A stretch of 35,878 bases of DNA, taken from positions 1 through 35,878 of the IMG/VR virus record IMGVR_UViG_3300006840_000056. One strand, 5' to 3'. Numbering within the stretch: position 1 is the first letter of the stretch; every line of letters starts with the position of its first letter. Position numbers and translations under genes: made by a program. This DNA comes from a virus. Below are positions 2,432 through 34,884 of the stretch, piece by piece. The notes below the pieces were generated by a model, which did no database searches, was not told where the DNA came from, and worked only from the letters and a program-made list of their open reading frames with translations.

Positions 2432-2938
2432 TTAAGCACTAGAATCACCTATTAACCCAAGCATATCGCCATCAAGTCTTGTTTCGTCAATTATTCCTTC
2501 AAATTCCAACTCAACAACTCTTTCCTCATCAACCTTAAAAGGTATTTGAATACTGTTTACTACTACTGCCTTATAGATAACTACATCTTCCGACAAGTCA
2601 TCATCATCGTTTGCTACTGGGTGTAATACAAGTGTTTCTGCTGCATCTGATAACCTTAAACCAACGTCACCACCTATCTTAATAGATGAAGCCGAATTTT
2701 CCCCTGCTGGTATTGCAATAGCCAAGTTAGCTATTGAAGATTCAGCTAAAGGTACTGTAGCTCTTAACTTTTGCCCAATTAATACTTTTTCTGCTGGTGT
2801 GCTTCCGTATTGGTCTACGGTTATATCGTGGATATCCGGTTCGTAAGTCACGGTAACCCCACCTTTAGTATGACCTAGAGGCACGTTACCAAATGTTACT
2901 GCACAGACACCCATTTTTACATTAGATATGTCACTCAT
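2432..2938 (-). CDS. major tail (tube) protein
   Basis: 168 aa, strong SD (GAAAGGCGGTGAAAATAAATG). The position immediately upstream of the chaperone pair is typical of a siphovirus tail tube gene. Confidence 0.75.
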   Translation of the reverse strand: MSDISNVKMGVCAVTFGNVPLGHTKGGVTVTYEPDIHDITVDQYGSTPAEKVLIGQKLRATVPLAESSIANLAIAIPAGENSASSIKIGGDVGLRLSDAAETLVLHPVANDDDDLSEDVVIYKAVVVNSIQIPFKVDEERVVELEFEGIIDETRLDGDMLGLIGDSSA

Positions 2939-3138
2939 TTATTTTCACCGCCTTTCAAATTAGAACTTAATACTTTTACTAACTCATTTTTGGTTGTCTT
3001 AAAATTAATTATATTCACTTCGTTACATTTAGGGCATTTTATTTCCAATCTCCCCGCATAGATATATTCCATAGCCAACAAGTTACGACACTTGCTACAT
3101 CTAAACTCTCTATAAGGTTTTTCATTTATATATCTCAT
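2935..3138 (-). CDS. Com-like zinc-ribbon protein
   Basis: FRCSKCRNLLAMEYIYAGRLEIKCPKCNEVNII matches the phage Mu Com pattern R-C-x2-C-x2-L-L-x(7-8)-[IL]-E-I-[RK]-C-P-[RK]-C. Its stop overlaps the tail tube ATG (ATGA). Confidence 0.65.
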   Translation of the reverse strand: MRYINEKPYREFRCSKCRNLLAMEYIYAGRLEIKCPKCNEVNIINFKTTKNELVKVLSSNLKGGENK

Positions 3139-4160: not shown

Positions 4161-4826
4161 TTATAGCTCAATACGACCCTTTTTATTGTAGATGCCTTTC
4201 AGTAGGTTACGAGCATTTGGGGATATGAAGCGGTTTCTACCGCTTTTAACTTTATAACTGTATCCCTCTAATTGCTCGGAATCGTAGTCTACCGCACCTG
4301 CAAAGTAGTCGTTTCCTTTCTCAATTATATACTCAACTTGTGCTAACGTTGCACGTGTTACCGCTTCCGGTATGCTTTTGTACCATTTACTATCACCACT
4401 TAAAAAAGCGTCCTCATCACGTGGGAACTTTCCAAGTTGCTTGATTACATAAAAAGATGTGTTGTCTGGATTTGTAGTCCAATCAGGGCTTACAGTTATT
4501 TTGTTAGATGATTTACTTGACGATACTATGTTACGGGTTTGTCCGCTACCTGTACCGCCAATTATTTCTACCTGACAATAAGTAAAATAGTCGTCAAAAT
4601 GCACCTTTAATGGTGAATCACTTGACGTATCAATTAAATAATTACTGCCACCCGATGTTGCAAGACCAGAATAAACATCGTCTACGTGCTTCACTTGGAA
4701 ACCAACGTAGGCGTCAACCATTTCCTCTGCGTGGGACATTTGGTCTTCTGCCTCTTTAGCATCAGTTACTTGTATGTTGGAAAACTGTTCTATTTCGTCT
4801 TCCGTTACATATTGCCTTTTAGTCAT
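4161..4826 (-). CDS. head-tail connector protein (gp6-like N-terminus, about twice the usual length)
   Basis: The N-terminus MTKRQYVTEDEIEQFSNIQVTDAKEAEDQMSHAEEMVDAYVG looks like phage gp6-type connectors. It is the first gene of the connector block. Confidence 0.6.
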   Translation of the reverse strand: MTKRQYVTEDEIEQFSNIQVTDAKEAEDQMSHAEEMVDAYVGFQVKHVDDVYSGLATSGGSNYLIDTSSDSPLKVHFDDYFTYCQVEIIGGTGSGQTRNIVSSSKSSNKITVSPDWTTNPDNTSFYVIKQLGKFPRDEDAFLSGDSKWYKSIPEAVTRATLAQVEYIIEKGNDYFAGAVDYDSEQLEGYSYKVKSGRNRFISPNARNLLKGIYNKKGRIEL

Positions 4827-4858
4827 ATATGTTAATTATATCACCTACCTTTCACACA

Positions 4859-6346
4859 TTAAACATCTAAATGCTTGTACCACTTTTCGTCTTGCTTTAC
4901 GCCTATGGTTTTATTATCACGGTTATACCAACCTTTATGCTGTCCTGCGTACCAGCTACCCTTACCAACTATTAATGCACTACGGCTTGATGTTCCTGTG
5001 TTGCCACCAGTTAACTTGGCTGGGCGTGTATCTTGGGCGGTGTCCTTACCTGTTATTTTAGCTGTTCTGGTGTCCTGTGCGGTGTCCTGTGCGGTTAGTT
5101 TGGCATTTCTGGTATCGTTAGCCCCTAATATCCCAACCACTTTAGCCGAACGTACACTATTGGCTAAATCACTACCTTTTATTGTTGCACCCCTATTTGT
5201 GTCACTTGTGTCACAACCAACCAACCTTGCATTACGTATATTAGAAAGTGTTTCTATTCCTTTTAGGGTTGCACTTCGGTAATCATTTGCTGTTTCCTTA
5301 CCAATAATGTGGGCGTTCCTTGTATCTTGGGCGGTGTCGTAACCAGTTACTTTAGCGTTACGATTATCATTAACGGTTGTAGCAACACCTGTTAGCTTGG
5401 CATTTCTGTTATCAATAGATGTTTCCTTACCTGTTATTTTAGCCAGTCGGTAATCGTTAGCTTGGGCAACACCTGTTAGTTTGGCGTTCCTTGAACTATT
5501 AACATCTATACTACCCGTAATGTGGGCTGACCTATTGTCGCTGGTGGTGTCAATACCAGTTAACTTGGCTAACCTAACACTACTACTACCACCCTTAACG
5601 GGTATTTTAGCCATTCTAAAAGACGATGTTGTTTGTTTACCAGTTAGCTTTGCGTCCCTTGTATCGTTTTCATTTATACCGCCTGTTAACTTTGCTGGTC
5701 GGTTGTCGTTTGTAGTGACAACACCTGTTAACTTGGCGTTTCTATAATCATTAGCCAAAGCACTACCTGTTAATTTTGCAGAACGGTTATCATTAGAAGT
5801 ATCCTTACCTTTTAGGTATGCACTTCTTTGGGTGTCAGATACCACCCCACCCGTGATAACGGCTGTACGGGCATTGTAGGCGGTTGTTTTTCCGCTTACT
5901 TTCGCATTTCTTGTTGAAAATGCTGTTTCCTTACCTGTTATTTTAGCTTCCCTGTCATCGTAAGCTGTTTCAACACCTGTTATTTTGGCATTTCTGTCTG
6001 AATTGGCTGTGTCTTTACCAGTTATTTTGGCACTTCGTGTATCGTTTGCAGTATCATATCCTGTTAGTTTTGCGGAACGATAATCAAGGGAAGTGTCTTT
6101 ACCGATTATTTTTGCACCTCTGTAGTCGTTAGTGAGTAAACTACCTGCTATCTTAGCCCCTCTGCTATCGTAAGTTGTGGCAGAACCTGATATTTTTGCA
6201 TTTCTATCAGAATTAATATTTGTGCCTACAGTTTCTTCAGTTAGTACAACATATGCCTCACCGTTTATCCAATATTTAAGACTCCCTAACCCTGTGTCGG
6301 GAAGGACAGGCTCTCCATTGTTCCAATATTTGAGGTTTCCAATCAT
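4859..6346 (-). CDS. repeat protein: 30 tandem 14-residue units (consensus x-D-x-R-x-A-K-[IL]-T-G-x-[DE]-T-x), putative fibre
   Basis: I counted 30 consecutive units from SDRNAKISGSATTY to SSRSALIVGKGSWY. The N-terminus has duplicated LKYW(N/I)NGE motifs. The C-terminus is Trp/Tyr-rich (WYAGQHKGWYNRDNKTIGVKQDEKWYKHLDV). Confidence 0.85.
   Translation of the reverse strand: MIGNLKYWNNGEPVLPDTGLGSLKYWINGEAYVVLTEETVGTNINSDRNAKISGSATTYDSRGAKIAGSLLTNDYRGAKIIGKDTSLDYRSAKLTGYDTANDTRSAKITGKDTANSDRNAKITGVETAYDDREAKITGKETAFSTRNAKVSGKTTAYNARTAVITGGVVSDTQRSAYLKGKDTSNDNRSAKLTGSALANDYRNAKLTGVVTTNDNRPAKLTGGINENDTRDAKLTGKQTTSSFRMAKIPVKGGSSSVRLAKLTGIDTTSDNRSAHITGSIDVNSSRNAKLTGVAQANDYRLAKITGKETSIDNRNAKLTGVATTVNDNRNAKVTGYDTAQDTRNAHIIGKETANDYRSATLKGIETLSNIRNARLVGCDTSDTNRGATIKGSDLANSVRSAKVVGILGANDTRNAKLTAQDTAQDTRTAKITGKDTAQDTRPAKLTGGNTGTSSRSALIVGKGSWYAGQHKGWYNRDNKTIGVKQDEKWYKHLDV
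4946..6211 (-). repeat. 42-bp (14-codon) in-frame tandem repeat array, about 30 diverged copies
   Basis: Periodicity is visible in the protein (R-x-A-K every 14 residues) and in the DNA (recurring ttagc/ttggc...acctgtta strings). Confidence 0.85.
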
Positions 6347-6351
6347 AGTTT

Positions 6352-7836
6352 TTAACTCGCTGAAATATCATCAATAAATACATTCCCCGATGAACCCCTG
6401 CATTTGATACGAAGCTCCAAAATTCCATCCTCTGTTATACTCCCAGAAGACGCCACAATACTTTTCTGTGCATAGGAAGTTGTTGGTGTCCACTCTGTCC
6501 AACCTGTGATTTTTTCTCCCATAAAGTAAATTGCCGCTTGTACATCACCATTAAAAGAAGCATCGTCTTTTATGTAAGCAGATAAGGTTTGAGATACGCC
6601 ACTATCGGCTTTGAAAAAGAACGATTGACTAATATAATAAACTGCTGATGTCGGAGTGTATTTTAGACACTCACCACTTCTGGCGTTTGCTGTATCTCTC
6701 TCTGTTGTTCCGTATTCATAGAAACATTTATTTACTCCCGCTGTTTTGAAGTGCTGACATTTTAGACAAGGGTAGTCTCCGTAGTGCCTTGCAGGAGATA
6801 CATAAACATCTGTTGAGTTTCCTGTTCCTGAATATTTATTTACAATGTTGTTTGGACTGTTGCTTAAATAAATACCCCCACTATTACTATTACAAGTTGG
6901 GGTAGTTATGGTGTTGTTTGAACTGTAGTATAAATCAATACCGTAACTATTACTATTACAGGTTGGAGTAGTTATGGTGTTGTTTGAACTGAGTTCTAAA
7001 TAAATACCGTAACTATTACTATTACAGGTTGGAGTAGTTATGGTGTTGTTTGAACTGTAGTATAAATCAATACCGTAACCATTACTATTACAGGTTGGAG
7101 TAGTTATGGTGTTGTTTGGACTGTTGCTTAAATCAATACCCTCACTATTACTATTACAGGTTGGAGTAGTTATGGTGTTGTTTGGACTGTTGCTTAAATA
7201 AATACCATAGTTATATCTCAAAAAATGACATCGTTCTATTTCAACATAACTTTTGCTACTTAAATAGAGTCCATAACCATACCTATTAGCAAAAGTTGAG
7301 TGCATTTGTCTAAAATAAGTCTGCCCATTTTGTGTAGGACCTGATAAATCCCAACCACCAGATATTTTTAACTTACTTGATGAAGTTCCTGAAGCAGAAA
7401 CTGTTTGAACAGCTGTCCAATTGCTTGCCGCTCCTGTACTTGTTATTCCCAATTTCTGTGAAGAAACTCCGCTTTGTGTAGCCCCAGAATAGTTTTTATA
7501 CAGCGTAGCGTGAGTGCTATCCGTAACTGTTATAACTTCCCACCAATTACCATCTCCTCCTTTTATAAAATCACCCAGTCTTACAGAACCATCGGTCTCA
7601 CCACCAGATACAGCATTAACAAAAATTGCACTTGTAGAAACTACTGCCGTATCATTTTGGGTAAAACTCAAAGTTCCTGCTAAATCAATCGGGGCTGGAC
7701 TTTTGGCGACACGAACCTCATCACCACCTGTTAAACCAGTTGACGCTTTAGTTATTGTTTTATAAGGGTTTCCAGCAGAACCATCTCCTGTATCATCGTG
7801 TCCATTTATGTAATCACAATATTTTATATATGCCAT
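6352..7836 (-). CDS. right-handed parallel beta-helix repeat protein with a C-terminal jelly-roll/CBM-like domain (depolymerase-like)
   Basis: The N-terminus DGSAGNPYKTITKASTGLTGGDEVRVAKS is the typical pectate-lyase-fold entry motif. It has 5.5 near-identical 22-aa coils (LSNSPNNTITTPTCNSNSYGID). The C-terminus ends ...GNVFIDDISAS. Confidence 0.8.
   Translation of the reverse strand: MAYIKYCDYINGHDDTGDGSAGNPYKTITKASTGLTGGDEVRVAKSPAPIDLAGTLSFTQNDTAVVSTSAIFVNAVSGGETDGSVRLGDFIKGGDGNWWEVITVTDSTHATLYKNYSGATQSGVSSQKLGITSTGAASNWTAVQTVSASGTSSSKLKISGGWDLSGPTQNGQTYFRQMHSTFANRYGYGLYLSSKSYVEIERCHFLRYNYGIYLSNSPNNTITTPTCNSNSEGIDLSNSPNNTITTPTCNSNGYGIDLYYSSNNTITTPTCNSNSYGIYLELSSNNTITTPTCNSNSYGIDLYYSSNNTITTPTCNSNSGGIYLSNSPNNIVNKYSGTGNSTDVYVSPARHYGDYPCLKCQHFKTAGVNKCFYEYGTTERDTANARSGECLKYTPTSAVYYISQSFFFKADSGVSQTLSAYIKDDASFNGDVQAAIYFMGEKITGWTEWTPTTSYAQKSIVASSGSITEDGILELRIKCRGSSGNVFIDDISAS
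6838..7197 (-). repeat. 66-bp in-frame tandem repeat, about 5.5 near-identical copies
   Basis: ggttggagtagttatggtgttgtttga/gactg... recurs every 66 nt and encodes the 22-residue beta-helix coils. Confidence 0.9.
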
Positions 7837-7837
7837 A

Positions 7838-8254
7838 TTATTTTACCTCCGTAGAAGTGTTAACTAAACACCAGCAATTACTCGGATTATTTTCATCTAC
7901 CCAAAGTTGTAGTCTGTAGTTGGGATAAATTGCCTCAATGAAGACAAATAGTTCTTCGTGTTTTTCGCCGCTGTTATCCTTAACGTCATAACCAATATGA
8001 TGACCAAAGTTAAACCCAATAGGTTTTTCAACGTCATAAAACGCCTTAAATCGTGGTCTTTTTCCACCACTTGGTAAATTAAATGTCCTGTTACCGCTGG
8101 TTAAGAGTGAAAGGGAAGTAATTTCCAAATTATTTTCTTGTACGTATTTTAACAACTTTTGCCACGCCGATGACTCAACGTCGCTTACAAAGTCGTTGTC
8201 TTCTAATATCTGTTGCCCGTTTGATAGAGCAACCTGCCATTTTATAGATTTCAT
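7838..8254 (-). CDS. hypothetical protein
   Basis: 138-aa ORF with an ATG start, tightly packed with its neighbours. No motif recognised. Confidence 0.6.
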   Translation of the reverse strand: MKSIKWQVALSNGQQILEDNDFVSDVESSAWQKLLKYVQENNLEITSLSLLTSGNRTFNLPSGGKRPRFKAFYDVEKPIGFNFGHHIGYDVKDNSGEKHEELFVFIEAIYPNYRLQLWVDENNPSNCWCLVNTSTEVK

Positions 8255-8307
8255 AAAAGCCCCCTATAAAACAAATACTTGGTATCGCTTAATCCCAAGC
8301 CATATTA

Positions 8308-8874
8308 TTAGCTGTAGGTTAATTCTATTCTGAACGCAAAAGCTGTCTTTTCACCAACCGAAGCCGGTGACGCTGATACACCTATGTAATAATCGTGTGA
8401 TGTACTTGCAGTGTCGTCGTTCAAAGTTAAAGCTTTACCACTACCTTCTATTTCTGTGAAGTTGGTGTCACCAACTTCAAATGCCCTTACATCTATGTCT
8501 GTAGGTGCGGTTGCTGGTGTAGTACCATCATACGCATAAAATTTAGCATTTGTAGTTGTTACTGCCGAAGTGTGCGAGAAGTTAATTTTTAGTGTAGCTT
8601 CTGCGTTTGTTATTGCGTCAATGTCTTCTGTACCGTCACCCCAGTCTGCTTGTGAGTCGCCACCGCCACCACCTGATTGTGAAATGAACTTCACGTTGTT
8701 AGGTGTATTGCCAGACGAATCGTTAGCACCCACACTACTTTCAACGTGTGTGCTGTCGTTATACGAACCTACCGTAATGGGGCTACCAAAAGTAGCACCT
8801 GCAAATTGTATTTTGTCGGTTGCGTCTATTGTTGTAGGGGTTGCACCCTGTAATGTCCAAGTAAATGTTGCCAT
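8308..8874 (-). CDS. Ser/Thr/Gly-rich hypothetical protein (possible virion decoration protein)
   Basis: 188 aa with a strong SD (GAAAGGCGGTG). Low-complexity T/S/G stretches (SQSGGGGGDSQ, TTPATAPT). Location in the head-proximal island. Confidence 0.55.
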   Translation of the reverse strand: MATFTWTLQGATPTTIDATDKIQFAGATFGSPITVGSYNDSTHVESSVGANDSSGNTPNNVKFISQSGGGGGDSQADWGDGTEDIDAITNAEATLKINFSHTSAVTTTNAKFYAYDGTTPATAPTDIDVRAFEVGDTNFTEIEGSGKALTLNDDTASTSHDYYIGVSASPASVGEKTAFAFRIELTYS

Positions 8875-8892
8875 ATATAATTACACCGCCTT

Positions 8893-9171
8893 TCAAAATA
8901 AATTAAATACTTTATCTTTCATTTTAGTTATTTCTTTTAATGCAATGTCTTTTTCCATATCTTTTTTAACTGCTTTTTGTAATTGGGCTACAAAGTCTTC
9001 CCATTTAATTACGCCCTGCTCGGTGGATATGCCAAAAGGTTTATACCATTTATTCTTACCAGATACTATTTCAACTGACACAACACCACGCTTGTTGGTA
9101 TCGTCCATTTTTATATCCACTATTTTGGCGGTTATCTTACTTAACTTTTGTTCAAATGATAGTTCTGCCAT
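8893..9171 (-). CDS. hypothetical protein
   Basis: 92-aa Lys/Glu-rich ORF with an ATG start. No motif recognised. Confidence 0.6.
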   Translation of the reverse strand: MAELSFEQKLSKITAKIVDIKMDDTNKRGVVSVEIVSGKNKWYKPFGISTEQGVIKWEDFVAQLQKAVKKDMEKDIALKEITKMKDKVFNLF

Positions 9172-9198
9172 ATATGTTAATTATACCACCTGTATATA

Positions 9199-12183
9199 TT
9201 AAAAACACCTCATAACTTCTTTTGGAATACTACCTGTATACTTTTCTACAGTACCACCCCCGTGTGTAGGTTGTGTCGGGTCGCCTGTTTTCCAGTCGGT
9301 CCAAGTATCTTTTACTGTAAGTCGTGTGTCCCTGTTTTTGTAGAACTCCAATTTGTCTTTAATGTCTTCAGCGTCTTTACAATACCCAAAATGGTGTAAC
9401 TTAATACTATTATCTAATACTCTGCCGTATTTGTCACCTATACGTGTACCACTTACAAGTGTTGGTTCACTTGCGTGTTGCTTGATTTCCAGCCCTTTTT
9501 CGGCAAACCTAAAACATCTAAATAGGTTACTTTCCCACTGACTACCTACGGCTATCATATCTAACGACTTCCAAAAATGTAAATGCTTAAAATAAATAAC
9601 ACCCGCATTGGGGTTTTCACGCATTTTCTTAACTAATTTACGCCAATAATAATCACCCCACACTTCGTCCCCGTCAACAAACAATCCCCAACCTACTTGG
9701 TCAGCTAAATCAATACATTTTTGTCGCAATGCTTCCTTACCACTAACCCACCCCATTTGCTCGTATATTATCTTATTTGGATATTCTTCCATTACCTTGC
9801 GTATTTCCTTTTCAGTATTATCAACACTTAAACCTCTTTCATTAGCACGTGGGTAACGCCTGTCAGCACCCTCAACCACAATTACCTTGTCTACTTCTTT
9901 ACGCTTACATACCGCACGTAATGACGCACCTATGAACTTTTCTTCGTTTAAGACAATAAACATAGGCGTTACTTTTAGTTTTTCGTCTTTTTTCCTGATA
10001 GGTTTAACTATGTTTAACAACTTGTCCTGCATAACCTCAAAATAATGGTCTGTTTTAGGTGTAAGTGGTTTGCTACCAATAGCAAGCCCTAACTTGTCCT
10101 GTAATTCCTGTTTGTCAAAACATTTTGCCTTATACATACCCCCATCATCGTAAATATCCTTTATAGCTGGTAAGTCGTAACACACTACTGGTATACCCAT
10201 TGCCCGTGCTTCCGTAACCCACATACCAAACCCCTCAAAATGTGAACCAGATAACACACATTTACTTTGTGCCATTAGTTTGAACTTTTCCACATCTGAC
10301 AGTTGAGTATGCACCACAACCTTGTCAAACGGTATACCCAATGCCTCTACTTTGTTTATTATGCCGTTATCTTCATTAGTTATTATGTGTAATGTGTGGT
10401 CACGGCTAAACGGCTTAAACGCCCACAATGCTTCTAAAAAGCCCTTTCTTGGGTTATTACGTGATATCATAACTATGTGGTTGCCTCTTGCACGTTTAGT
10501 ACGTTTATCAAACAACTCAACCAACCTACTATTTACTGCGGGGTGTAGTGCTACGATGTATTTCTTGTCTATACCATACCATTTAGCCCAATCGTCAATA
10601 CTGTTTTCTGTCAACACAATTAACTTAAAATCAATTAACTCGTGTAAATGCTTGTCTAAAAAGTCCTTTAACTCGTAGTCCCTTTGTAATTCGTCTTTGG
10701 TACAAACATCACTATTCTCTACCCAAGTAGGTGGGTCAAACATTGTGATATAAACGGGTTTTTTGTATTTAAGCCCCAACCGTAAAGCACACATACTTGC
10801 TTTCGCGGGACTGCCAAAATACGCATTGGCTTCTACATCTAAATCATAAAACGCCTCTGCACCTTTGTATTTTGATTTATTGTCGTGTCCTATTATTCTA
10901 ACTTCGGGCGTTTCGTATAAATCAAAGTCCTTTCTAAATATTGGCATTTCGTTCGTATAAATAACTGTCTTTAGGTTGGATTCGGTTAACATTAATGCCT
11001 GTAACCAACTGTGGTATCTACCGCCAGAATAGAAACGTATATCTTCTGTTAAAAAAGCCACATCAGGTTTATCGTCTGGTATTACCTTGCTGTTTACTTC
11101 CTTTAATACCTTTGCCAACTTTTTAGCCGAGTGTTCTGCTGTCCAATTCTCACTTACCCATTTAGCACCCGCCTTACCTTTTGCCCGTGCTTCGTCTTGG
11201 TGTTCGTATACATAACGCATTTGCTTTTTAAGTGATTCTAAATCGGGTTCAATCATTCTACCCACATCGCTGGGTGCATAGTTTGAGTATACTGCTGGGC
11301 AATCGCCGTTAATGTCTATTTCATAAAAATAATCGGGGTCAAAGTATTCCGACATACCGCTTCCATTAGGTATCAGTACGGGCAGTCCTGTTGCAAGTGC
11401 TTCTAAAGGTGTAAGCCCAAAACCCTCGCCCCTGCTTGGGAATACAAACGCATCTGCTTGGGATAACAGGTCACGCATTTGCTGGTAACTGTATTCGGCT
11501 TTTATTACATCTATGTTAGGGTACTGGTCTTTTAATAATGGGAACGGCGGTTTATTGTGTATGGTTTTGAATATCATCTTAACTGGCTCGTCAATACCGA
11601 ACTCTTGGGTAAACGCCTTAAAAACCAAATCAAAGCCCTTTCTTATATTAAAAGCATTGTAATGTAAAAAGGTAAACACGTCGTGCTTTGGGCGTTCAAT
11701 ATATCTGTATTCTTCGTGGTTATACCCCAAAGGTACTACTGTTGTTTCTATGCCACGTGTGGCAAACATTTCTTGGCAGAACTCACTTGGAACAATTACC
11801 TTATCGGCTCTTTTTAAGTGCCTAACCCAGCTTGTAGGTATGGTGGTGCTTTCAAACATTGAATATATTACTTTAATGGGTGTTTTTAGTCGGTCTGCAA
11901 ATACAGGCGTGTAATAACACATACCTATGTTTTGCCCGTCGTATTTTTTGCTAATATTAACACCGTGTTTTTTTAGGTGTTTCATTAAATATGCTTGACT
12001 TTGCCCGTACCCGTCAGGGCGGTCAGTAGAGGTTAACAAATATACTGGTAAACCAGCACTTGTATCTTGTTTATTAATTGTCTTGGGCTGTTCATCTAAT
12101 AAAGTAAAACCACGCCTTAAAAGCTGTTCAACCTTACTGCTTGAAACACCCACGATTTGCCCAGAAGGATTACGTAAAAACAT
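9199..12183 (-). CDS. three-domain glycosyltransferase (GT-B/GT4-like + GT-B/GT4-like + GT-A/GT2-like)
   Basis: Two E-x7-E type GT4 signatures are present: PSRGEGFGLTPLEALATGLPVL and SGSHFEGFGMWVTEARAMGIPVV. The C-terminal domain (VTPMFIVLNEEKFIGASLRAV...VVEGAD...FVDGDEVW) has a DxD motif typical of GT2. Confidence 0.8.
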   Translation of the reverse strand: MFLRNPSGQIVGVSSSKVEQLLRRGFTLLDEQPKTINKQDTSAGLPVYLLTSTDRPDGYGQSQAYLMKHLKKHGVNISKKYDGQNIGMCYYTPVFADRLKTPIKVIYSMFESTTIPTSWVRHLKRADKVIVPSEFCQEMFATRGIETTVVPLGYNHEEYRYIERPKHDVFTFLHYNAFNIRKGFDLVFKAFTQEFGIDEPVKMIFKTIHNKPPFPLLKDQYPNIDVIKAEYSYQQMRDLLSQADAFVFPSRGEGFGLTPLEALATGLPVLIPNGSGMSEYFDPDYFYEIDINGDCPAVYSNYAPSDVGRMIEPDLESLKKQMRYVYEHQDEARAKGKAGAKWVSENWTAEHSAKKLAKVLKEVNSKVIPDDKPDVAFLTEDIRFYSGGRYHSWLQALMLTESNLKTVIYTNEMPIFRKDFDLYETPEVRIIGHDNKSKYKGAEAFYDLDVEANAYFGSPAKASMCALRLGLKYKKPVYITMFDPPTWVENSDVCTKDELQRDYELKDFLDKHLHELIDFKLIVLTENSIDDWAKWYGIDKKYIVALHPAVNSRLVELFDKRTKRARGNHIVMISRNNPRKGFLEALWAFKPFSRDHTLHIITNEDNGIINKVEALGIPFDKVVVHTQLSDVEKFKLMAQSKCVLSGSHFEGFGMWVTEARAMGIPVVCYDLPAIKDIYDDGGMYKAKCFDKQELQDKLGLAIGSKPLTPKTDHYFEVMQDKLLNIVKPIRKKDEKLKVTPMFIVLNEEKFIGASLRAVCKRKEVDKVIVVEGADRRYPRANERGLSVDNTEKEIRKVMEEYPNKIIYEQMGWVSGKEALRQKCIDLADQVGWGLFVDGDEVWGDYYWRKLVKKMRENPNAGVIYFKHLHFWKSLDMIAVGSQWESNLFRCFRFAEKGLEIKQHASEPTLVSGTRIGDKYGRVLDNSIKLHHFGYCKDAEDIKDKLEFYKNRDTRLTVKDTWTDWKTGDPTQPTHGGGTVEKYTGSIPKEVMRCF

Positions 12184-12224
12184 ATTTTTATTTAATAAAT
12201 TATATCAGTTGGGTGAAATATACA

Positions 12225-12258
12225 CAATACACAAAATGCCCCACCGAAGTGAGGCATT
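12225..12258 (-). terminator. rho-independent terminator after the major capsid gene
   Basis: Minus strand AATGCCTCAC-TTCG-GTGGGGCATT (10-bp stem, UUCG loop) followed by TTTGTGTATT. Confidence 0.7.
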
Positions 12259-12282
12259 CTGCTTTATTCAGTTGTTAGTACC

Positions 12283-13224
12283 TTACGCATCTACTGCGGG
12301 TTGGTGTGCGATAGCAACCATCAATTCAGGTCTAATGGTCTTAACTCCGTAAAGGATATCAAGCGTACATTGTAAACCAAGTCCTGATTTATCGTATCCA
12401 ATAGTGCTTCTGATAGCCAAGCCACTCTCTGCGTCTTGAACAGTCATTTGGCTTACGCCATTTCCGTTACCCCAGTCAGGTAATGGTCTGACCGCCAGAA
12501 CAAGAGCATCGCTACCATAAACGATTGGGTAATAAGTGTCAGGTGACGTACTGTCATCAACACCTACAACTTGTGATTCAAACAAGTTAATACCCGCCAG
12601 TTTTTCAACTGAAGCGTCTAAAAGCGGTTTGTTATTTCCGAATTGTGACGCATCTTCAATACCAGTCTCGTTAAGGATTTCTTCAACCGCATACTCGTCA
12701 AGCTGTGCGAACATAGGTGCGAACTTTGGTAACTTGTTAGTTACTAGGGTTCGTCTAGCTCTTACCAACGCCTTTTTCCAACCAGTAAAGTCGGTATAGT
12801 CAAGCGTTGTACCAGCGTTTGCGTATTCATCGGCAATATCCTGTTCCACCTGTTCAGCGATAACTGCAACCGCATCTCTAATGTAAGCCTCTAACACTGC
12901 TGGGATAGACACTGCTTTCGCAACGTCCTCAATCATAAAGGTTACTTCCTTATGCTTGTTAAGTACCACCTGCACTACATCATCATCAGGTGCTTGTACT
13001 GTAACATTAGTTTTAGCTGTCTTATCGTTTACTTCAAGTGTTCCTCTTACTGGAATATCCAATGTAGTACCTCTGCTTGCGAAATCGCCAGAATAATCCT
13101 TTCTAACGGTTCTTGCAAGGTTTAGGTACTTTCTTAAATAATCAAGTCCCTCGTTTGCTGACCTAACCATTATTTCAGGTATATGATTAGCAAGTTCGGT
13201 TTGTCCTATTGCTGTATATGGCAT
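12283..13224 (-). CDS. major capsid protein
   Basis: 313 aa with a strong SD (GAAAGGTGGTGAAATAAAATATG). It lies directly after the scaffold gene and is followed by a strong terminator, which fits a highly expressed late gene. Confidence 0.8.
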   Translation of the reverse strand: MPYTAIGQTELANHIPEIMVRSANEGLDYLRKYLNLARTVRKDYSGDFASRGTTLDIPVRGTLEVNDKTAKTNVTVQAPDDDVVQVVLNKHKEVTFMIEDVAKAVSIPAVLEAYIRDAVAVIAEQVEQDIADEYANAGTTLDYTDFTGWKKALVRARRTLVTNKLPKFAPMFAQLDEYAVEEILNETGIEDASQFGNNKPLLDASVEKLAGINLFESQVVGVDDSTSPDTYYPIVYGSDALVLAVRPLPDWGNGNGVSQMTVQDAESGLAIRSTIGYDKSGLGLQCTLDILYGVKTIRPELMVAIAHQPAVDA

Positions 13225-16254: not shown

Positions 16255-16271
16255 ATATATTATTATAACAC

Positions 16272-17817: not shown

Positions 17818-17834
17818 ATACAAATTATATCACT

Positions 17835-18251
17835 TTACCTGCGTCTACTAAACATCTGTACACAGTACCCATTACTACAACTGACACAACTATGTGTATA
17901 ATCGTTTTCTAAATTAGCCCTGTGGGTGTCAGAAGATAACCAAGCATTGAGTGTACTTTCAGCGTCATTAAAATCTTTAGCAAGGTTCTCACCAATGTGC
18001 TTATACCCTAACTTAAACATTACCGGTACATATGCCCAGAACCCGCGATGCGACCAATCAACCTGTATTTCTTTTACACGCTTACTTGCTATATAACACA
18101 GACAGTAATCCTTTTTGTAAGCACTTCTTCCATCCTCAACACGCCAGTCCTGTACTTGCTTCCACACGCTACCGGATGACGGAGAAGCAAATGTCGTGGT
18201 TGTAGTAATTACAAGCAAACCTATAAATATAAGGTGTTTAAGTTCTTTCAT
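17835..18251 (-). CDS. secreted CAP/SCP (YkwD-like) domain protein
   Basis: Signal peptide MKELKHLIFIGLLVITTTTTFASP. CAP motifs GENLA...AWLSSDTHRANL...GYCVQMF. Start taken at ATG 18251 rather than TTG 18260. Confidence 0.65.
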   Translation of the reverse strand: MKELKHLIFIGLLVITTTTTFASPSSGSVWKQVQDWRVEDGRSAYKKDYCLCYIASKRVKEIQVDWSHRGFWAYVPVMFKLGYKHIGENLAKDFNDAESTLNAWLSSDTHRANLENDYTHSCVSCSNGYCVQMFSRRR

Positions 18252-18825
18252 ATACTGCAAAGTTATTAATTAAATACCTTATATTACAGTTATCAGTTTC
18301 AATTATTTCTTTAGCTTTGGCGGTTATTAAATCAGTAAGTTCGGGGTTGTACTTAAACCCTGCGTTTTCTATCTTTTCAATCCAGTATTCTTTTGGCTGA
18401 CAGTTAACGTGTGATGTACCACCTTGCCCCACACCTGCACTTGTCATTAGTATTTTGTTTTCAGCGTGGCGGGTTAATATGCTTACATAATTGTCTGCAA
18501 ATTGTGGCTCTATGTGTTCTGCAACCTCAATGCTTAATACCATATCCCACATTTTGTGTAACTCTACTGGTGTTCTTAAATCCTGTATTTCTATCATATT
18601 TGACACACGTGACACAGCTTTGGTAGCTTCCGAACCGTCTATACCGTGTGTGGGGATAAGGTGTGCAAAGTATTCCATCATAAAACCAGCACCGCACCCA
18701 ACATCTAACACGCTTTTTGGCTTTAGTACGTCATAAAACATCTGTGCCAACTTAATATACGTGTTTCTATAGAACTCGTGTCCTGTAAAATATTCCGTTG
18801 TGTATATGTTATTTATTTTGTTCAT
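18238..18825 (-). CDS. class I SAM-dependent methyltransferase
   Basis: Motif I is VLDVGCGAGFMMEYF. A downstream acidic loop and VLSIEVAEHI (motif IV-like) follow. Confidence 0.8.
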   Translation of the reverse strand: MNKINNIYTTEYFTGHEFYRNTYIKLAQMFYDVLKPKSVLDVGCGAGFMMEYFAHLIPTHGIDGSEATKAVSRVSNMIEIQDLRTPVELHKMWDMVLSIEVAEHIEPQFADNYVSILTRHAENKILMTSAGVGQGGTSHVNCQPKEYWIEKIENAGFKYNPELTDLITAKAKEIIETDNCNIRYLINNFAVYERT

Positions 18826-19204
18826 TGTATAATTCCTCTAATTGCCAACTTTTTAATGGTTTAACATCTGCTTTGGCTTGGCGACGTATTTCGTTTAATT
18901 CGTCTAACACTTCCTGCCCGTAGGTTTTTAACATAAATTGCGTATAAGGTACGGGGTTTTTGTTGTGTTCCCAATTACAGCTTGAACATTGCGGGTGGAC
19001 ATTTTTCGGACACCACCTTAATTGTTTAATGTCCCTTGATATGTAATGCCCCACCTGTAACCCAAAAGGGTTGTTTTGTGGGTGAAACCAGTCTATTGCC
19101 TTACCACAAGTAACACACACTTTCGGGTACTCGGCTTTTAACCTATCCCTTACTTTATCGTCTAACTTATCAATGGTTTTTTGGCGTTCGCTTTTTTTAG
19201 CCAT
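18809..19204 (-). CDS. ninG: NinG/Rap-like recombination endonuclease
   Basis: CVTCGKAIDW...VGHYISRD..QLRW...NVHPQCSSCNWEHNKNPVPYTQFMLKTYGQEVLDEL aligns by eye with lambda NinG CISCG...AGHYRT...LRF...[36 protein letters not shown]. Confidence 0.75.
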   Translation of the reverse strand: MAKKSERQKTIDKLDDKVRDRLKAEYPKVCVTCGKAIDWFHPQNNPFGLQVGHYISRDIKQLRWCPKNVHPQCSSCNWEHNKNPVPYTQFMLKTYGQEVLDELNEIRRQAKADVKPLKSWQLEELYNEQNK

Positions 19205-20207
19205 TTAATTGTGCCTCTACCATTAATTGTACCAGTTCTTTGAACTTTGTTGTAGGTTGCCACCCCAATTCCTTGTATGCTTTGGTGTAATCGCCTACTA
19301 ATAAATCAACTTCTGCTGGTCGGTAGTATTTAGGGTTAACCTTAACTACGGTTTGCCCGTGCTGGTTAATACCTACTTCGTCTAACCCCTGCCCTTTCCA
19401 AGTAATATCCCAGTCTAATTGTCGGGCGGTTTCTTCTACGAATTCCCTAACCGAGTGGGTTTCGCCTGTGGCTATTACATAATCATCTGGCTGTGGGGCT
19501 TGTAGCATTGCCCACATAGCTTGTACATAGTCCCCAGCAAAACCCCAATCCCTTTTACTGTCTAAGTTGCCCAGTTCAACACACTCTCTTTCACGTTTCC
19601 AAACCTCTACCATTTGTTTTACTATCTTTTTAGTTACAAACTGCTCACCCCTGCGTGGGCTTTCGTGGTTGAATAAAATACCATTACAGGCAAACATATC
19701 GTAAGCCTCACGATAATTGCGGGTAATCCAATATCCAAATAGCTTACTTGCCCCGTATGGTGAACGTATATTCATAGGTGTATTTTCATTTTGTGGCACT
19801 TCTGCAACCTTTCCAAACATTTCACTACTACTGGCTTGATAGAACTTTATAGTTGGATCTATCTGCCTAATGGCTTCTAACATTCTCAATACACCAACGC
19901 CCGTTATATCTGCTGTCTGAAGTGGTAGTTTGAACGAAGCACCTACATCTGACTGCGAAGCCAAATTATACACTTCTGTAGGCTTAAAATTAGCAATCAA
20001 TGATATTAGACTGCTAATGTCCTGCAAATCCCCATACGCCAACGAAAAATCACTGACACCTACTAAATGCTTTATTCTTGATAAATTATCGGTGCTGGTC
20101 CTGCGGTACATTCCGCACACTTGATAACCTTTCTTCAGTAAGAACTCTATTAAATATGATGCATCCTGTCCGGTTGCACCGGTAACCAATGCTCTTTTTT
20201 TATTCAT
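19197..20207 (-). CDS. gmd: GDP-mannose 4,6-dehydratase
   Basis: ALVTGATGQDASYL (GxxGxxG). The stretch YNLASQSDVGASF...KFYQASSSEMFG...RSPYGASKL...YREAYDMFACNGILFNHESPRRGEQFVTKKI matches the GMD family throughout, including the S/T-Y-K catalytic residues and the NHESPRRG box. Confidence 0.9.
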   Translation of the reverse strand: MNKKRALVTGATGQDASYLIEFLLKKGYQVCGMYRRTSTDNLSRIKHLVGVSDFSLAYGDLQDISSLISLIANFKPTEVYNLASQSDVGASFKLPLQTADITGVGVLRMLEAIRQIDPTIKFYQASSSEMFGKVAEVPQNENTPMNIRSPYGASKLFGYWITRNYREAYDMFACNGILFNHESPRRGEQFVTKKIVKQMVEVWKRERECVELGNLDSKRDWGFAGDYVQAMWAMLQAPQPDDYVIATGETHSVREFVEETARQLDWDITWKGQGLDEVGINQHGQTVVKVNPKYYRPAEVDLLVGDYTKAYKELGWQPTTKFKELVQLMVEAQLNG

Positions 20208-21727: not shown

Positions 21728-22258
21728 TTATCCTTCAACAACCACTCCCAATGCTGTTAAGAAGTCATCTATTTGGTTCTTTTTTATTTTTGTATTCCCA
21801 TTTCTTCCATAGAACTTGGCGTGATAGAAGTCAACACCTTTCAAGTTAGCACCTTCCAAGTTAGCACCTATCAAGTAAGCATCTCTCAAGTCAGCATCTA
21901 CTAAGTTAGCACCTTCCAAGTCAGCACCTACCAAGTAAGCATCTCTCAAGTTAGCACCTATCAAGTTAGTACCTCTCAAGTCAGCATCTCCCAAGTAAGC
22001 ATCTCTCAAGTTAGCACCTATCAAGTTAGCACCTCCCAAACAAGCATCTCTCAAGTCAGCATCTCCCAAGTAAGCATCTCTCAAGTCAACATTTCTACTA
22101 ACTGCTTCTTCTACTGCTTCCTTTAAAGTAGTCTTATCACTCTCAAAGAGAACTTCTCCTGCAAGTGTCTTTATCTGCAACTTATTAGACTCTTCCTTTT
22201 CTACTTGACTTTTTATTAACTCATATGTTTCATCTGAAACTGTTATTGTTTTAGTCAT
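21728..22258 (-). CDS. pentapeptide-repeat protein
   Basis: About 19 consecutive A(D/N)LXX pentapeptides: DLRDAYLGDADLRDACLGGANLIGANLRDAYLGDADLRGTNLIGANLRDAYLVGADLEGANLVDADLRDAYLIGANLEGANLKGVDF. The DNA shows the matching 15/30-nt periodicity (caagttagcacct...). Confidence 0.9.
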   Translation of the reverse strand: MTKTITVSDETYELIKSQVEKEESNKLQIKTLAGEVLFESDKTTLKEAVEEAVSRNVDLRDAYLGDADLRDACLGGANLIGANLRDAYLGDADLRGTNLIGANLRDAYLVGADLEGANLVDADLRDAYLIGANLEGANLKGVDFYHAKFYGRNGNTKIKKNQIDDFLTALGVVVEG

Positions 22259-23722: not shown

Positions 23723-23882
23723 TTTTAGTTTCCTCTTTTAACTTTTTACTAAATCGTAACCCTATTTCCTCTAATATTTCTTCTATCTCTTTTTCTGGTA
23801 TTTTGTGCCTACGCAATATAGCCACTATACTTTCGGAAAGAATTGCTACCGCCGTACTTATCGTATCTGTATGGTATATCAT
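23715..23882 (-). CDS. hypothetical small protein (55 aa)
   Basis: Own translation: MIYHTDTISTAVAILSESIVAILRRHKIPEKEIEEILEEIGLRFSKKLKEETKND. ATGA overlap with the upstream gene. It fills an otherwise empty 160-nt gap. Confidence 0.5.
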   Translation of the reverse strand: MIYHTDTISTAVAILSESIVAILRRHKIPEKEIEEILEEIGLRFSKKLKEETKND

Positions 23883-30772: not shown

Positions 30773-30785
30773 ATAATATATTATA

Positions 30786-31049
30786 TCACTTATTAGATTT
30801 GTCTTTTAATAGAGAGTGAAAATGTATTCCAGCCCACAACACTACTGCAGGAGTCAATACAAAACTATTGGTAATATCCCTATCAACCGCACCAAACCTA
30901 AACAAAGCATTTGCAGTAAAAAGTCCAAATGCCATTAAAATATCCCCTATAAATAAATCGTTAGTGAACTTTCTTTTAACAATACCTTTTAGTGATGACA
31001 GTATAACTATGGCATAACACACTAACCTAATGTATTCCAATATTATCAT
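30786..31049 (-). CDS. holin-like membrane protein (87 aa, three hydrophobic segments)
   Basis: YIRLVCYAIVILSSL, ILMAFGLFTANALF and FVLTPAVVLWAGIHF, with a charged C-terminus KDKSNK. Confidence 0.55.
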   Translation of the reverse strand: MIILEYIRLVCYAIVILSSLKGIVKRKFTNDLFIGDILMAFGLFTANALFRFGAVDRDITNSFVLTPAVVLWAGIHFHSLLKDKSNK

Positions 31050-33619: not shown

Positions 33620-33847
33620 TTAATGAACAGCCACCCACGAACCATTAGCCCTTACCATTAACTTATCTGTGGTGGTATTGTAAAACAACTGCCCATCTTC
33701 ACCACTTGCTGGATTACTTGCACCAGTAGGCACACGAAAAGTTCCCTCGTCTGGTATGGTTAGGTTAACAATCAAACCCCTTGTTTGTAGGTTTTTTATG
33801 TCCTGTTCCATTTTCTTTATTTTTTCAATAATATTATAGTTTTCCAT
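33620..33847 (-). CDS. small tail-fibre-associated protein
   Basis: N-terminal coiled coil plus GQLFYNTTTDKLMVRANGSWVAV, a motif frequent at fibre N-termini. Confidence 0.45.
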   Translation of the reverse strand: MENYNIIEKIKKMEQDIKNLQTRGLIVNLTIPDEGTFRVPTGASNPASGEDGQLFYNTTTDKLMVRANGSWVAVH

Positions 33848-34884
33848 TAGTATTCCCTAAATGTTATACCTACCTCACCTGTTTCGTTACAGGTACGTCT
33901 ATTGACCCTGTAACTGCTGTTTATATCGTAAGACGGTATAACAACATTTAACCAATCACCTACAGCGTAATTATTAAAAATAGGTTCATCGTACCTGCAA
34001 GTTAAATAAATAGTTAAACGTGGTGCTTGGTATATTTCTAAATGCTTATCGCCCTTATCTTCTAAAGTTGTCTGTACGCTGACATCTGATTCATTTAATA
34101 CATCTTGCAGTAAAAAGAACGCTTCCTTATATGTATTACTTGCGTCACGCGTGACAACTAACTGATTATCCTCATCAACCCCACTACCTATTACGATAAC
34201 CTGATTAACCATACCATCAATAAATGTTTTACTTATTTGATATGTGTTAATGTTAAAGTCTTCTTCTAAATAAATGTTCCTTGTAGTGCCTTTGGGGTAG
34301 TAAATATTGAACTTTTTATCAGCGTCAACATCAAAATCATATCCGTCTTTAACTTCATTTGCCGACATTTTTTTAATGACTTCTGCTATGTTTTTATATC
34401 TTAAATCAGTCCTGTCCCTGTTTTTAGTGGTTGGGTCTGCACCCCTTGTAATACCCAAATCACCATACGCCCCATTAGTTTGGGTATAATTAATTAAACC
34501 CCAAGCTATATCAGAGCTATCGGTTGCTGTATAAGAAAGACTATCATCAGTATATCGTTTTTCCAATAAGCTAAAAAAACCTTTGCTTTGTACTGATATT
34601 GTACCTAATTGCCCAACACCAGAATTGAATTGTAGCTCTGAAATATACCCCGCATATATTTTATTGTCTTCCTCATCGTATATTTCTATTTCCCTGTAAC
34701 TTGCACTAAAAATGTATTCAATGGTAATATCGTGTGCGTCTGCAATAGGTTTAATGGCTGTACTTTCAAACGTAATACTTAACGATTCACCTTTGTTAAG
34801 TTCCTGCTCAATATTAAAACCAACAAAAGGTAGTTCCCATATAAGCGAATCGTCGCTATTTTTTACTACACATCTAAATGTCAT
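33847..34884 (-). CDS. tail-associated protein (Tal / prophage-tail N-terminal-domain-like)
   Basis: 345 aa immediately after Dit in the TMP-Dit-Tal order, with ATGA overlaps. Confidence 0.6.
   Translation of the reverse strand: MTFRCVVKNSDDSLIWELPFVGFNIEQELNKGESLSITFESTAIKPIADAHDITIEYIFSASYREIEIYDEEDNKIYAGYISELQFNSGVGQLGTISVQSKGFFSLLEKRYTDDSLSYTATDSSDIAWGLINYTQTNGAYGDLGITRGADPTTKNRDRTDLRYKNIAEVIKKMSANEVKDGYDFDVDADKKFNIYYPKGTTRNIYLEEDFNINTYQISKTFIDGMVNQVIVIGSGVDEDNQLVVTRDASNTYKEAFFLLQDVLNESDVSVQTTLEDKGDKHLEIYQAPRLTIYLTCRYDEPIFNNYAVGDWLNVVIPSYDINSSYRVNRRTCNETGEVGITFREY

Follow-up and report, generated by a model that had tools for sequence, protein, structure and literature searches.

The window analysed here is the whole of IMG/VR virus record IMGVR_UViG_3300006840_000056 (35,878 nucleotides), a complete circular siphophage genome with 35,745 bp of unique sequence, ~38% GC and all genes on the minus strand. 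Between the gene for the major capsid protein (MCP) and that for the head-tail adaptor it carries a stretch of six co-oriented genes (4859-12183), coding for a large glycosyltransferase (GT), three small proteins, a right-handed beta-helix protein and a fibre-like repeat protein. With a confidence slightly above even, these genes are read as parts of two functionally and evolutionarily separate late-gene modules, one a cytoplasmic system for virion-protein glycosylation and the other an exchangeable adhesion/depolymerase cassette. The stretch, its borders and the window ends are composed as follows (loci related to the window are designated by L numbers throughout):

12283..13224, minus strand: MCP (phrog_283, E = 2.8e-32; P22_CoatProtein C-terminal match)
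12231..12262, minus strand: terminator-like hairpin between the capsid and GT genes, with a UUCG loop and a 14-bp stem
9199..12183, minus strand: fused three-domain glycosyltransferase, 994 aa (GT4-GT4-GT2)
8893..9171, minus strand: p92, 92 aa, lineage-restricted, preceding p188 in window-type backbones
8308..8874, minus strand: p188, 188 aa, conserved core protein of the mobile cassette
7838..8254, minus strand: p138, 138 aa, second conserved core protein of the cassette
6352..7836, minus strand: right-handed beta-helix protein, 494 aa, in a variable slot after p138
4859..6346, minus strand: fibre-like repeat protein, 495 aa, with 30 tandem 14-residue repeats
4161..4826, minus strand: head-tail adaptor, 221 aa, downstream border of the stretch (phrog_541 and phrog_4931 match aa 146-215 only)
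1-133 and 35746-35878: terminal direct repeat, 133 bp, identical (circular or terminally redundant genome)

All six open reading frames (ORFs) were found where the initial annotation of this DNA had placed them, and the gene content it described, a GT together with fibre- or depolymerase-like proteins, is supported by domain matches. Its descriptions of the single products also hold: the 994-aa protein exceeds the Pfam cut-offs for GT4 in two regions and for GT2 in one, the 494-aa protein is a beta-helix protein according to PF13229 and NosD, one of the small proteins (p188) is rich in Ser, Thr and Gly, and the 495-aa protein is built of 30 tandem 14-residue repeats, with one unit of 15 residues. 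The late-gene order was likewise recovered by profile annotation. It runs terS, terL, SPP1-type portal, gp7-like protein, scaffold and MCP, followed by the six-gene stretch, and continues with the adaptor, p119, tail terminator (PF12691), p67, tube, G, p91, tape-measure protein (TMP) and Dit (PF22768), after which come a Tal-like protein, a receptor-binding protein (RBP)-like protein, a 438-aa tail protein, holin-like proteins and a C39_2-type lysin. The six genes are thus extra in respect to the usual capsid-to-connector order, and a complete tail-tip block (Dit, Tal-like, RBP-like and tail protein) is present elsewhere in the genome, both as had been proposed. The window represents a circle whose ends overlap by 133 bp, and the TMP gene (574 aa) therefore crosses the junction and spans both window ends.

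The 994-aa GT consists of a GT4 domain at ~aa 50-365, a second one at ~aa 390-700, and a GT2 domain at ~aa 740-880, which is followed by a C-terminal region. PF00534 matches over two stretches with 106.3 bits (cut-off 26.4), PF13692 with 85 bits, and PF00535 with 37.9 bits (cut-off 23.3) at aa 744-876. The family PF20706, 'GT4 in conflict systems', also matches the protein (69.5 bits), and a PDB sequence search returned generic GT4 matches only. No transmembrane helix was found in the enzyme (highest 19-residue Kyte-Doolittle mean 1.22), which appears to be soluble.

The GT gene is tightly linked to the capsid gene. Relatives in IMG/VR at 77-99% identity all carry a ~1000-aa GT straight after the MCP, and the GT gene lies directly 3' of the MCP gene in 13/13 window-type loci showing both genes. 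The same arrangement is found in five distant relatives on GTDB contigs, with MCPs 29-35% and portals 41-44% identical to those of the window: a GT4 gene immediately follows the MCP gene in all of them, and this first GT4 is 42-47% identical to that of the window, which makes it better conserved than the MCP. One of the five, L019, is a prophage in a 1.4-Mb alphaproteobacterial (Vitreimonas) contig. In L024 the interval from MCP to adaptor comprises GT4, GT4, an 82-aa ORF, GT4, a methyltransferase (Methyltransf_24), GT2 and proteins of 251 and 392 aa; this seven-gene layout recurs in L039, L042, L061/62 and L070, and the window contains a reduced, fused version of such a cluster. Close relatives add a 222-aa GT2 (L001, L005, L083) or an FkbM methyltransferase and a GT2 (L006). 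As the GT and methyltransferase content varies among relatives, the glycan is expected to differ between phages. From this distribution the GT cassette is ancestral to this capsid lineage, and the MCP, as its syntenic partner, is a candidate glycan acceptor.

The last two genes of the ancestral GT cluster, immediately ahead of the adaptor gene (16433-18230 in L019, 18451-20266 in L020 and 16596-18504 in L024), encode conserved proteins of ~236-252 and ~354-392 aa. They are 40-56% identical among distant relatives, the 251-aa and 392-aa members have no Pfam or PHROG match, and both genes are absent from the window. These proteins could be further glycan enzymes or an acceptor/decoration protein.

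The linkage to structural genes (a GT after the MCP, in the late operon, in all relatives) corresponds to that of mycobacteriophage-type virion glycosylation. The target of the enzyme could also be an envelope glycopolymer of the host, modified for superinfection exclusion or a block of re-adsorption, for which prophage wall-teichoic-acid or O-antigen glycosyltransferases are the model, or phage DNA carrying glycosylated hydroxymethyl bases. The generic nature of GT4 and GT2, the PF20706 match, and the placement of relatives by PHROGs under 'moron, auxiliary metabolic gene and host takeover' are compatible with such a target, as are several small ORFs without annotation, and roles of phage GTs in DNA modification and host serotype have been noted (PMC12619734). 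Nevertheless, the enzyme has no transmembrane or Gtr-type components, and it is encoded in the late structural operon, away from the lysogeny and early genes. DNA hypermodification was considered, but Pfam and PHROG annotation of the genome recognised no base-hydroxymethylase or other DNA-hypermodification gene, and neither a thymidylate-synthase-like gene nor a polymerase was found. The strict MCP synteny and the 42-47% identity are maintained across contigs attributed to very different phyla, among them a real alphaproteobacterial prophage, which argues for a phage-borne acceptor and not a host-specific polymer. A target outside the virion proteins is therefore considered quite unlikely.

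Two further genes of the window, both outside the stretch, are relevant to glycan synthesis:

19197..20207, minus strand: GDP-mannose 4,6-dehydratase (PF16363, E = 4.3e-133, 444 bits; phrog_540)
18238..18825, minus strand: class I S-adenosylmethionine (SAM)-methyltransferase-like protein, adjoining the dehydratase, just upstream of terS

The dehydratase is full length, with aa 7-329 covering profile positions 1-332 of 332, and is kept in L009 (98.5%) and in the distant L027 (44%). It would supply an activated 6-deoxyhexose precursor, and it is counted here with the glycosylation system though it lies outside 4859-12183. The neighbouring protein gives weak methyltransferase matches in Pfam and PHROG, below the Pfam cut-offs except for PF08241, and can tentatively be regarded as a candidate glycan O-methyltransferase.

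The remaining genes of the stretch are of a different kind. The first of them, p92, has no Pfam or PHROG family match, and its homologues occur only in the window-type loci L006, L043, L071, L072 and L083. The next, p188, contains 25.5% Ser+Thr and 35.6% Ser+Thr+Gly. It has 627 homologues at E <= 1e-3, nearly all of 187-190 aa, which form 292 clusters at 50% identity in a set of 1.84 billion representatives and are almost always stand-alone proteins; a search for Rosetta-stone fusions in the same set gave none that is informative, the three longer proteins included. The AlphaFold 2 (AF2) model of p188 is a compact beta-sandwich with a predicted local distance difference test (pLDDT) score of 80.7 and a predicted template modelling (pTM) score of 0.81. 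Foldseek comparison of this model with PDB and BFVD returned no match at E <= 0.001, and similarities to a pilin (FimG) and to CBM32, with template modelling (TM) scores of 0.3-0.4, were rejected as non-diagnostic. The second core protein, p138, follows p188 in L006, L032, L036, L037 and 37 IMG/VR loci. Its AF2 model (pLDDT 89.8, pTM 0.83) shows an alpha/beta fold, for which Foldseek found no PDB match at E <= 0.001 (best E-value 0.43). PDB sequence searches with p188, p138 and the repeat protein, both as single sequences and as profiles, yielded nothing usable.

The p188 protein is 60-75% identical across phages with unrelated backbones. The MCPs of these phages belong to the P22-coat-like, PF05065, phrog_1005 and phrog_10 families, and Mu-like heads are also represented, so that p188 does not co-vary with the MCP family in the way expected of a co-evolving head decoration or fibre protein.

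The slot after p138 is occupied in the window by the beta-helix protein, which matches PF13229 with 72.6 bits and NosD with 79.7 bits and contains five 22-residue rungs. Tail-fibre N-terminus families of PHROG (phrog_1980, phrog_38424) match it as well. An OB-like module at aa 49-125 is homologous to the anchor domains of side tail fibres; within it, aa 74-124 align with aa 16-68 of PyoF13 (E = 9.4e-6). No full-length solved homologue was found by PDB sequence search. From these matches the protein is a candidate polysaccharide depolymerase or binding spike. At the DNA level, a 66-nt tandem repeat (6846-7206, 5.5 copies, 90% matches) encodes the five near-identical 22-aa rungs (…NNTITTPTCNSN…). 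The repeat has the appearance of a recent rung expansion, unlike the old repeat of the adjoining fibre gene, which is present at the protein level only. The slot also holds a beta-helix protein in L010, L017, L038 and L053, while other loci carry CBM96 (L032), a polysaccharide deacetylase and LamG (L063), or LamG and CarboxypepD_reg (L082) at this place. In L083, whose backbone is 92-96% identical to that of the window, the slot contains a 383-aa repeat-rich protein and a 324-aa GT2. Judged by eye only, the 383-aa protein resembles a BspA-type leucine-rich repeat.

The last gene of the stretch encodes the fibre-like protein. It starts with a 47-aa N-terminal module containing two LKYWxNGE motifs, continues with exactly 30 repeat units, all of 14 residues except one of 15, and ends in a 27-aa C-terminal tail in which the WY motif occurs three times. 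The repeat consensus is R-N-A-K-[IL]-T-G-K-D-T-A-N-D-T, with R1 and A3 invariant and G7 present in 27/29 units, and the repeat has no Pfam, PHROG or PDB sequence match. No tandem repeat is found in this gene at the DNA level, which indicates an old repeat that is preserved in the protein sequence. Triple beta-spiral shafts, such as those of the adenovirus fibre, reovirus sigma1 and PRD1 P5, have ~15-residue repeats. The fibre protein resembles them in the short repeat of 14-15 residues, a small or turn residue (G7), alternating small and hydrophobic positions (A3, I/L5) and the 30 copies, but in this comparison of sequences its consensus, with the invariant R1 and A3, is different.

The fibre protein diverges fast, being 44-54% identical between relatives while the adjoining adaptor is 99-100% identical. 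The N-terminal domains of its homologues are LamG/DUF2341, discoidin (F5/8-type-C) or Gly-rich. Phages with backbones 92-99% identical differ by exchange of the slot protein and of the N-terminal domain of the fibre, and have the fibre repeats (71% identity) and the C-terminus in common. The C-terminal tails consist of short tandem aromatic motifs, and their type tracks the backbone whatever the position of the cassette, being WY..DPKT in window-type phages and SPYSKK in another backbone type. Two to four such motifs in tandem, e.g. (D/N)WY(D/E)xDPKT…NWYKKY, SPYSxK or DWSKQ, follow the last repeat at these loci:

4859-4945 of the window
L039, L045, L052, L055, L062, L064, L065, L067, L068, L070 and L073

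Candidate roles for them are a dock on the virion and ligand binding.

The initial annotation had reported a strong UUCG-loop terminator after the capsid gene at 12225-12258; the hairpin is present and structurally strong, but lies at 12231-12262. Its minimum free energy is -24 kcal/mol, compared with -12.2 +/- 2.7 for shuffled sequences (z = -4.35), while terminator-like sites as a class are in no excess over chance in the region (7 found, 7.3 expected). The hairpin is kept in L083, L001, L004, L005 and L006 with compensatory changes in the stem, which identifies it as a selected structure, probably an attenuator lowering the output of the downstream GT enzyme. No Shine-Dalgarno (SD) sequence was found before the start codon of the 994-aa GT. 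A soluble GT without an SD sequence, behind a conserved hairpin, fits an enzyme produced in small amounts.

The p188 gene has a strong SD sequence, 'TTGAAAGGYGGTG', common to the MCP and tube genes. A near-identical ribosome-binding-site region, TTGAAAGG(T/C)GGTG, is found on the minus strand upstream of 13224 (MCP), 8874 (p188) and 2938 (tube). This shared region suggests that the amount of p188 produced is similar to that of the major structural proteins, and the protein is probably abundant. In many other loci (L039, L061, L063 and others) a near-consensus sigma-70-like promoter, TTGACA-17-TATAAT, stands directly before p188. An extended -10-like motif, GTG(A/G)TATAAT, was also noticed on the minus strand of the window, 0-15 nt before the starts of seven genes:

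4835-4844, minus strand: adaptor
9180-9189, minus strand: p92
12199-12208, minus strand: GT
16262-16271, minus strand: portal
17824-17833, minus strand: terS
30780-30789, minus strand: lysin
33599-33608, minus strand: RBP-like protein

The motif has 15 matches overall, compared with 8.0 +/- 2.7 expected, and 3/100 shuffles reach 15. These sites may be promoters for leaderless or short-leader mRNAs.

The triad of p188, p138 and repeat protein co-occurs in unrelated backbones. Among 46 IMG/VR loci, the position of the cassette was resolved in 39, leaving 7, and is distributed as follows:

Window-type position (after MCP and GT, before the adaptor): 16 loci
After MCP in other backbones: 14 loci
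Portal-MCP interval: 4 loci
Upstream of the portal: 1 locus
Dit-Tal interval: 3 loci (L056, L081, L082)
After baseplate hub and tail fibre: 1 locus (L073), and likewise in L036

The deep relatives L019, L020 and L024 have GTs and no cassette, and many backbones have the cassette without an adjacent GT. The description of the stretch as one island is therefore not borne out: the GT part is syntenic with the capsid gene, and the part formed by p188, p138, the beta-helix protein and the repeat protein is independently mobile. The cassette has the characteristics of a moron, namely its own promoter in many loci, presence/absence polymorphism, and at least five insertion positions. Head-module positions account for 34/39 resolved loci, 30 of them downstream of the MCP, either adjoining it or separated from it by the GT cassette or by some small genes; 4/39 are in tail modules and 1/39 is upstream of the portal. 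With L036, the tail-module contexts are five in all. In the window itself, Dit follows the cassette after ~7 kb in transcriptional order; by window coordinates the distance is ~29 kb.

Gene fusions connect the cassette with the tail tip through homologues of one window protein:

33847..34884, minus strand: Tal-like tail-tip protein, after Dit (phrog_1885)

In two loci, L056 (843 aa) and L082 (463 aa), a homologue of this protein has the 14-residue repeats joined in frame to its N-terminus. The single ORFs concerned (11028-13556 in L056, 12613-14001 in L082) comprise a variable N-domain, the repeats and a complete Tal-like domain. These fusions make the Tal-like protein a candidate docking partner for the fibre. 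The Dit homologue of L056 is on the opposite strand (9862-9056), a strand switch which may reflect a local inversion.

Such fusions raise the possibility that in the window phage, too, the cassette forms accessory fibres of the tail tip, with the WY tail docking non-covalently on the Tal-like protein or Dit and the beta-helix protein riding on the fibre shaft or the tip through its OB module. The Dit-Tal insertion in three phages and the homology of the OB module to the PyoF13 anchor, together with the PHROG tail-fibre matches of the beta-helix protein, point in the same direction, and the pattern of a variable N-end and a constant C-end of the fibre is consistent with a proximal C-terminus. 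Yet just five tail-module contexts are known (4/39 resolved loci and L036), the window already encodes an RBP-like protein and a 438-aa tail protein, and the high inferred expression of p188 would be needless for a low-copy tip adaptor. This arrangement in the window phage is a real possibility but, on balance, doubtful.

The opposite arrangement, with all six genes acting as one head-associated unit, had been proposed in the initial annotation. In such a unit p188 would decorate the capsid, the beta-helix and repeat proteins would be head fibres or a depolymerase carried on the head and anchored on p188, and the GT would glycosylate the coat. Genes for head decoration proteins and head fibres usually adjoin the MCP gene, as does that of phi29 gp8.5, and the 34/39 head-module neighbourhoods, with 30 positions after the MCP, are in line with this. 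So are the MCP-like strong SD sequence or own promoter of p188, which suggests a high copy number, its compact beta-sandwich, like that of many decoration proteins, and the extra GT2 amid the cassette genes of the close relative L083. On the other hand, the GT and fibre cassettes differ in distribution, with GT-only genomes (L019, L020, L024) and many cassette-only backbones. The Dit-Tal position in L056, L081 and L082, the position after the tail fibres in L036 and L073, and the Tal fusions are difficult to combine with such a unit; p188 shows no co-variation with the MCP family, and the known homologue of the OB module anchors a tail side fibre. A single head-associated unit is judged unlikely. 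Position by itself does not show head association, as unrelated phages carry the cassette at both head and tail sites. Carriage of the same genes in the tail module of relatives, which the initial annotation had named as evidence against its proposal, is found in some phages, including L056 with its distant backbone, but not at the 34/39 head-module positions. Neighbourhood and apparent expression level favour the head, while the Tal fusions, Dit-Tal insertions, OB-anchor homology and lack of p188-capsid co-variation favour the tail tip or a self-contained assembly. In view of this conflict the designation 'head-associated' is not accepted as established, and head attachment is possible but unproven.

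A variant, which we regard as improbable, makes the cassette a backbone-independent, exchangeable head-fibre kit, in which p188 would be a promiscuous platform, seated on HK97-fold capsids that are unrelated to each other or on the glycan layer added by the GT and dehydratase system, and the aromatic WY/PY motifs at the C-termini of the fibres would form a lectin-like dock. If this were true, any phage acquiring the cassette would gain swappable lectin or depolymerase head fibres, and, taken together with the MCP-GT synteny, glycan-coated and fibre-bearing capsids would be common in environmental siphophages far beyond actinophages.

The cassette could also be a non-structural moron, expressed from its own promoter, kept out of the virion and acting in or on the infected or lysogenic cell, or freed at lysis as an adhesin or enzyme complex. 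The sigma-70-like promoters directly before p188 in many loci, the promiscuous insertion site, the high conservation of p188 regardless of backbone, and the absence of any resemblance of p188 and p138 to a known virion protein fold can all be explained in this way. However, every resolved context is co-oriented within the late structural operon, no cassette protein has a signal peptide or transmembrane segment, and the domains present (beta-helix, lectin, OB fibre anchor, Tal fusion) are typical of virion receptor-binding proteins, which leaves a non-structural role very improbable.

In the two-module reading, which we favour, the first module would comprise the 994-aa GT and the dehydratase, probably with the methyltransferase-like protein at 18238-18825. 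The dehydratase would divert host GDP-mannose into a 6-deoxyhexose donor, and the soluble three-domain GT would build a short oligosaccharide stepwise on virion proteins, in the cytoplasm and late in infection. It could be attached to the capsid protein, to the Ser/Thr-rich p188, beta-helix and fibre proteins, or to both groups. The GT would be held at catalytic levels by the conserved hairpin and the missing SD sequence, and the glycan would contain 6-deoxyhexose and vary between lineages, as expected of an exposed surface coat.

The second module would be a horizontally mobile adhesion cassette of p188, p138, the beta-helix protein and the repeat fibre. Its constant core, p188 and p138, may serve as an adaptor or platform, or as assembly factors. 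The slot after p138 would take a swappable carbohydrate-active or adhesin protein, here a candidate depolymerase with an OB-type fibre-anchor module. For the product of the last gene we infer a long beta-structured fibre, probably trimeric, with the variable N-end distal and ligand-binding and the backbone-specific C-end proximal. With the cassette, the virion would have an additional device for binding or degrading surface polysaccharide, one that can be exchanged rapidly. Taken together, the two modules can plausibly be assigned to virion glycosylation and to an accessory function as adhesin or depolymerase, respectively.

Several observations weigh against this reading. Both protein glycosylation and the presence of the cassette proteins in the virion are predictions from the genes, and GT4 and GT2 enzymes also work on lipid-linked or cell-wall polymers and on DNA; ~8 small ORFs of the genome are without annotation. 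In comparison with actinophage GTs the identity is only 25-29% over one domain. The C-termini of the MCP (...AHQPAVDA) and the tube protein (...IGDSSA) have no obvious Ser/Thr-rich extension, unlike in the mycobacteriophage reports. A direct structural adaptor would hardly be expected to stay 60-75% identical, as p188 does, in phages whose MCPs, tubes and Dits are unrelated, and the conservation of p188 fits a chaperone or a self-contained assembly equally well. The own promoters and position-hopping of the cassette also fit a non-structural moron.

The closest precedent for the GT module is mycobacteriophage virion glycosylation. In the passage of PMC11600133 that cites Freeman 2023, Corndog-type GT/methyltransferase cassettes are reported to decorate the capsid and tail tube. 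Corndog gp35-38 are a methyltransferase and three GTs inside the head module, and in both cases several phage GTs and a methyltransferase are located in a siphophage head block, with a GT complement that varies among relatives. Unlike in Corndog, the window GTs lie after the capsid gene and not before it, and three catalytic domains are joined in one 994-aa chain; the window phage, whose system is known from its genes, additionally encodes a GDP-mannose 4,6-dehydratase, has ~38% GC and is not an actinophage. To our knowledge, phage virion glycosylation has so far been shown only in mycobacteriophages. The combination of a viral dehydratase with a fused multi-domain transferase is also found in PBCV-1, in which a viral GDP-mannose 4,6-dehydratase and A064R (two rhamnosyltransferase domains and a methyltransferase) build the MCP glycan in the cytoplasm, independently of the host secretory machinery. 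PBCV-1 is a giant eukaryotic virus with another capsid fold, and the likeness is a functional analogy only.

The beta-helix protein shares its OB module with side tail fibres that have an OB/Ig anchor, such as F2-pyocin PyoF13 (PDB 25ve) and Ur-lambda Stf. In PyoF13, the side fibre is anchored by the OB domain, which forms a ring around the shaft of the central fibre (PMC13455828). Only a ~50-residue module is common to the two proteins; in the window it follows an N-terminal beta-helix cap segment, and the remainder is a pectate-lyase-like beta-helix in place of a stem/tower/RBD (receptor-binding domain) fibre. With P22 gp9-type tailspikes and swappable RBPs the protein has in common the beta-helix core, the exchange between near-identical genomes, and lectin-type domains on the neighbouring fibre, but its gene belongs to the head module and is accompanied by those of two conserved partners of unmatched fold. 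Head decoration and fibre proteins (phi29 gp8.5, T4 Hoc, phage L Dec) have been reviewed (PMC7602432). The p188 protein resembles them in adjoining the MCP in most genomes, in its small beta-sandwich and in its probably high expression, and differs in having no co-variation with the capsid, in its occurrence between Dit and Tal, and in matching no decoration fold in PDB or BFVD.

The phage has no cultured relative and was assigned no host: megablast of 25 kb against INPHARED gave no match, and tblastn of the MCP a single one at 24.8% identity. A search of public assemblies for the exact GT protein returned no record. A GTDB scan with the MCP profile detected only distant relatives (29-38% identity) in metagenome-assembled genomes of many phyla, and a host assignment from them was rejected, as the 34-42-kb binned contigs are unreliable for this purpose.

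Some other features of the genome were also recorded. The adaptor carries a ~95-aa insertion (roughly aa 45-140) that breaks the usual fold; its interpretation as a neck-docking site for the cassette was rejected, since the adaptor is of equal length in relatives with and without the fibre cassette (228 aa in the cassette-less L024). Between the tail terminator and tube genes, a zinc-ribbon protein of 67 aa (p67, 2935-3138, minus strand) is conserved, and its orthologue in L083 (16475-16678) gives a weak PF10122 Zn_ribbon_Com match, so that p67 is a possible Com-like translational regulator in an unusual location. The early region encodes a 176-aa pentapeptide-repeat protein (21728-22258, minus strand; PF00805, E = 4e-41), with a possible function in DNA mimicry or anti-defence. 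Outside the lysis cassette there are a DPBB/lytic-transglycosylase-like protein (23879-24358, minus strand; PF03330, at threshold) and a weak CAP-domain protein (17835-18260, minus strand). In L007, ~1 kb of extra sequence splits the gp7-like gene (1481-2493), and in L014 ~0.55 kb splits the p67 gene (2027-2575); both could be mobile insertions, e.g. a homing endonuclease, intron or intein.

In general, virion glycosylation and accessory fibres are already known in kind, and the combination found here matches no described system, as the initial annotation had stated. What appears to be new is the deep MCP-GT synteny, with a dehydratase, in a broad clade of non-actinophages. New as well are the fibre cassette, a large and uncharacterised family that changes position and includes two folds without a match and an as yet unrecognised fibre repeat, and its juxtaposition with the GT cassette in one genome. 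As the cassette moves between head and tail blocks, gene order alone does not give the location of a protein in the virion. Besides one genuine prophage of an alphaproteobacterium, the clade includes contigs from bins of several other phyla, and thus offers candidates for capsid glycosylation outside actinophages. The docking site and ligand of the cassette would show how phages exchange adsorption devices, and would aid host-range prediction and the annotation of late genes.

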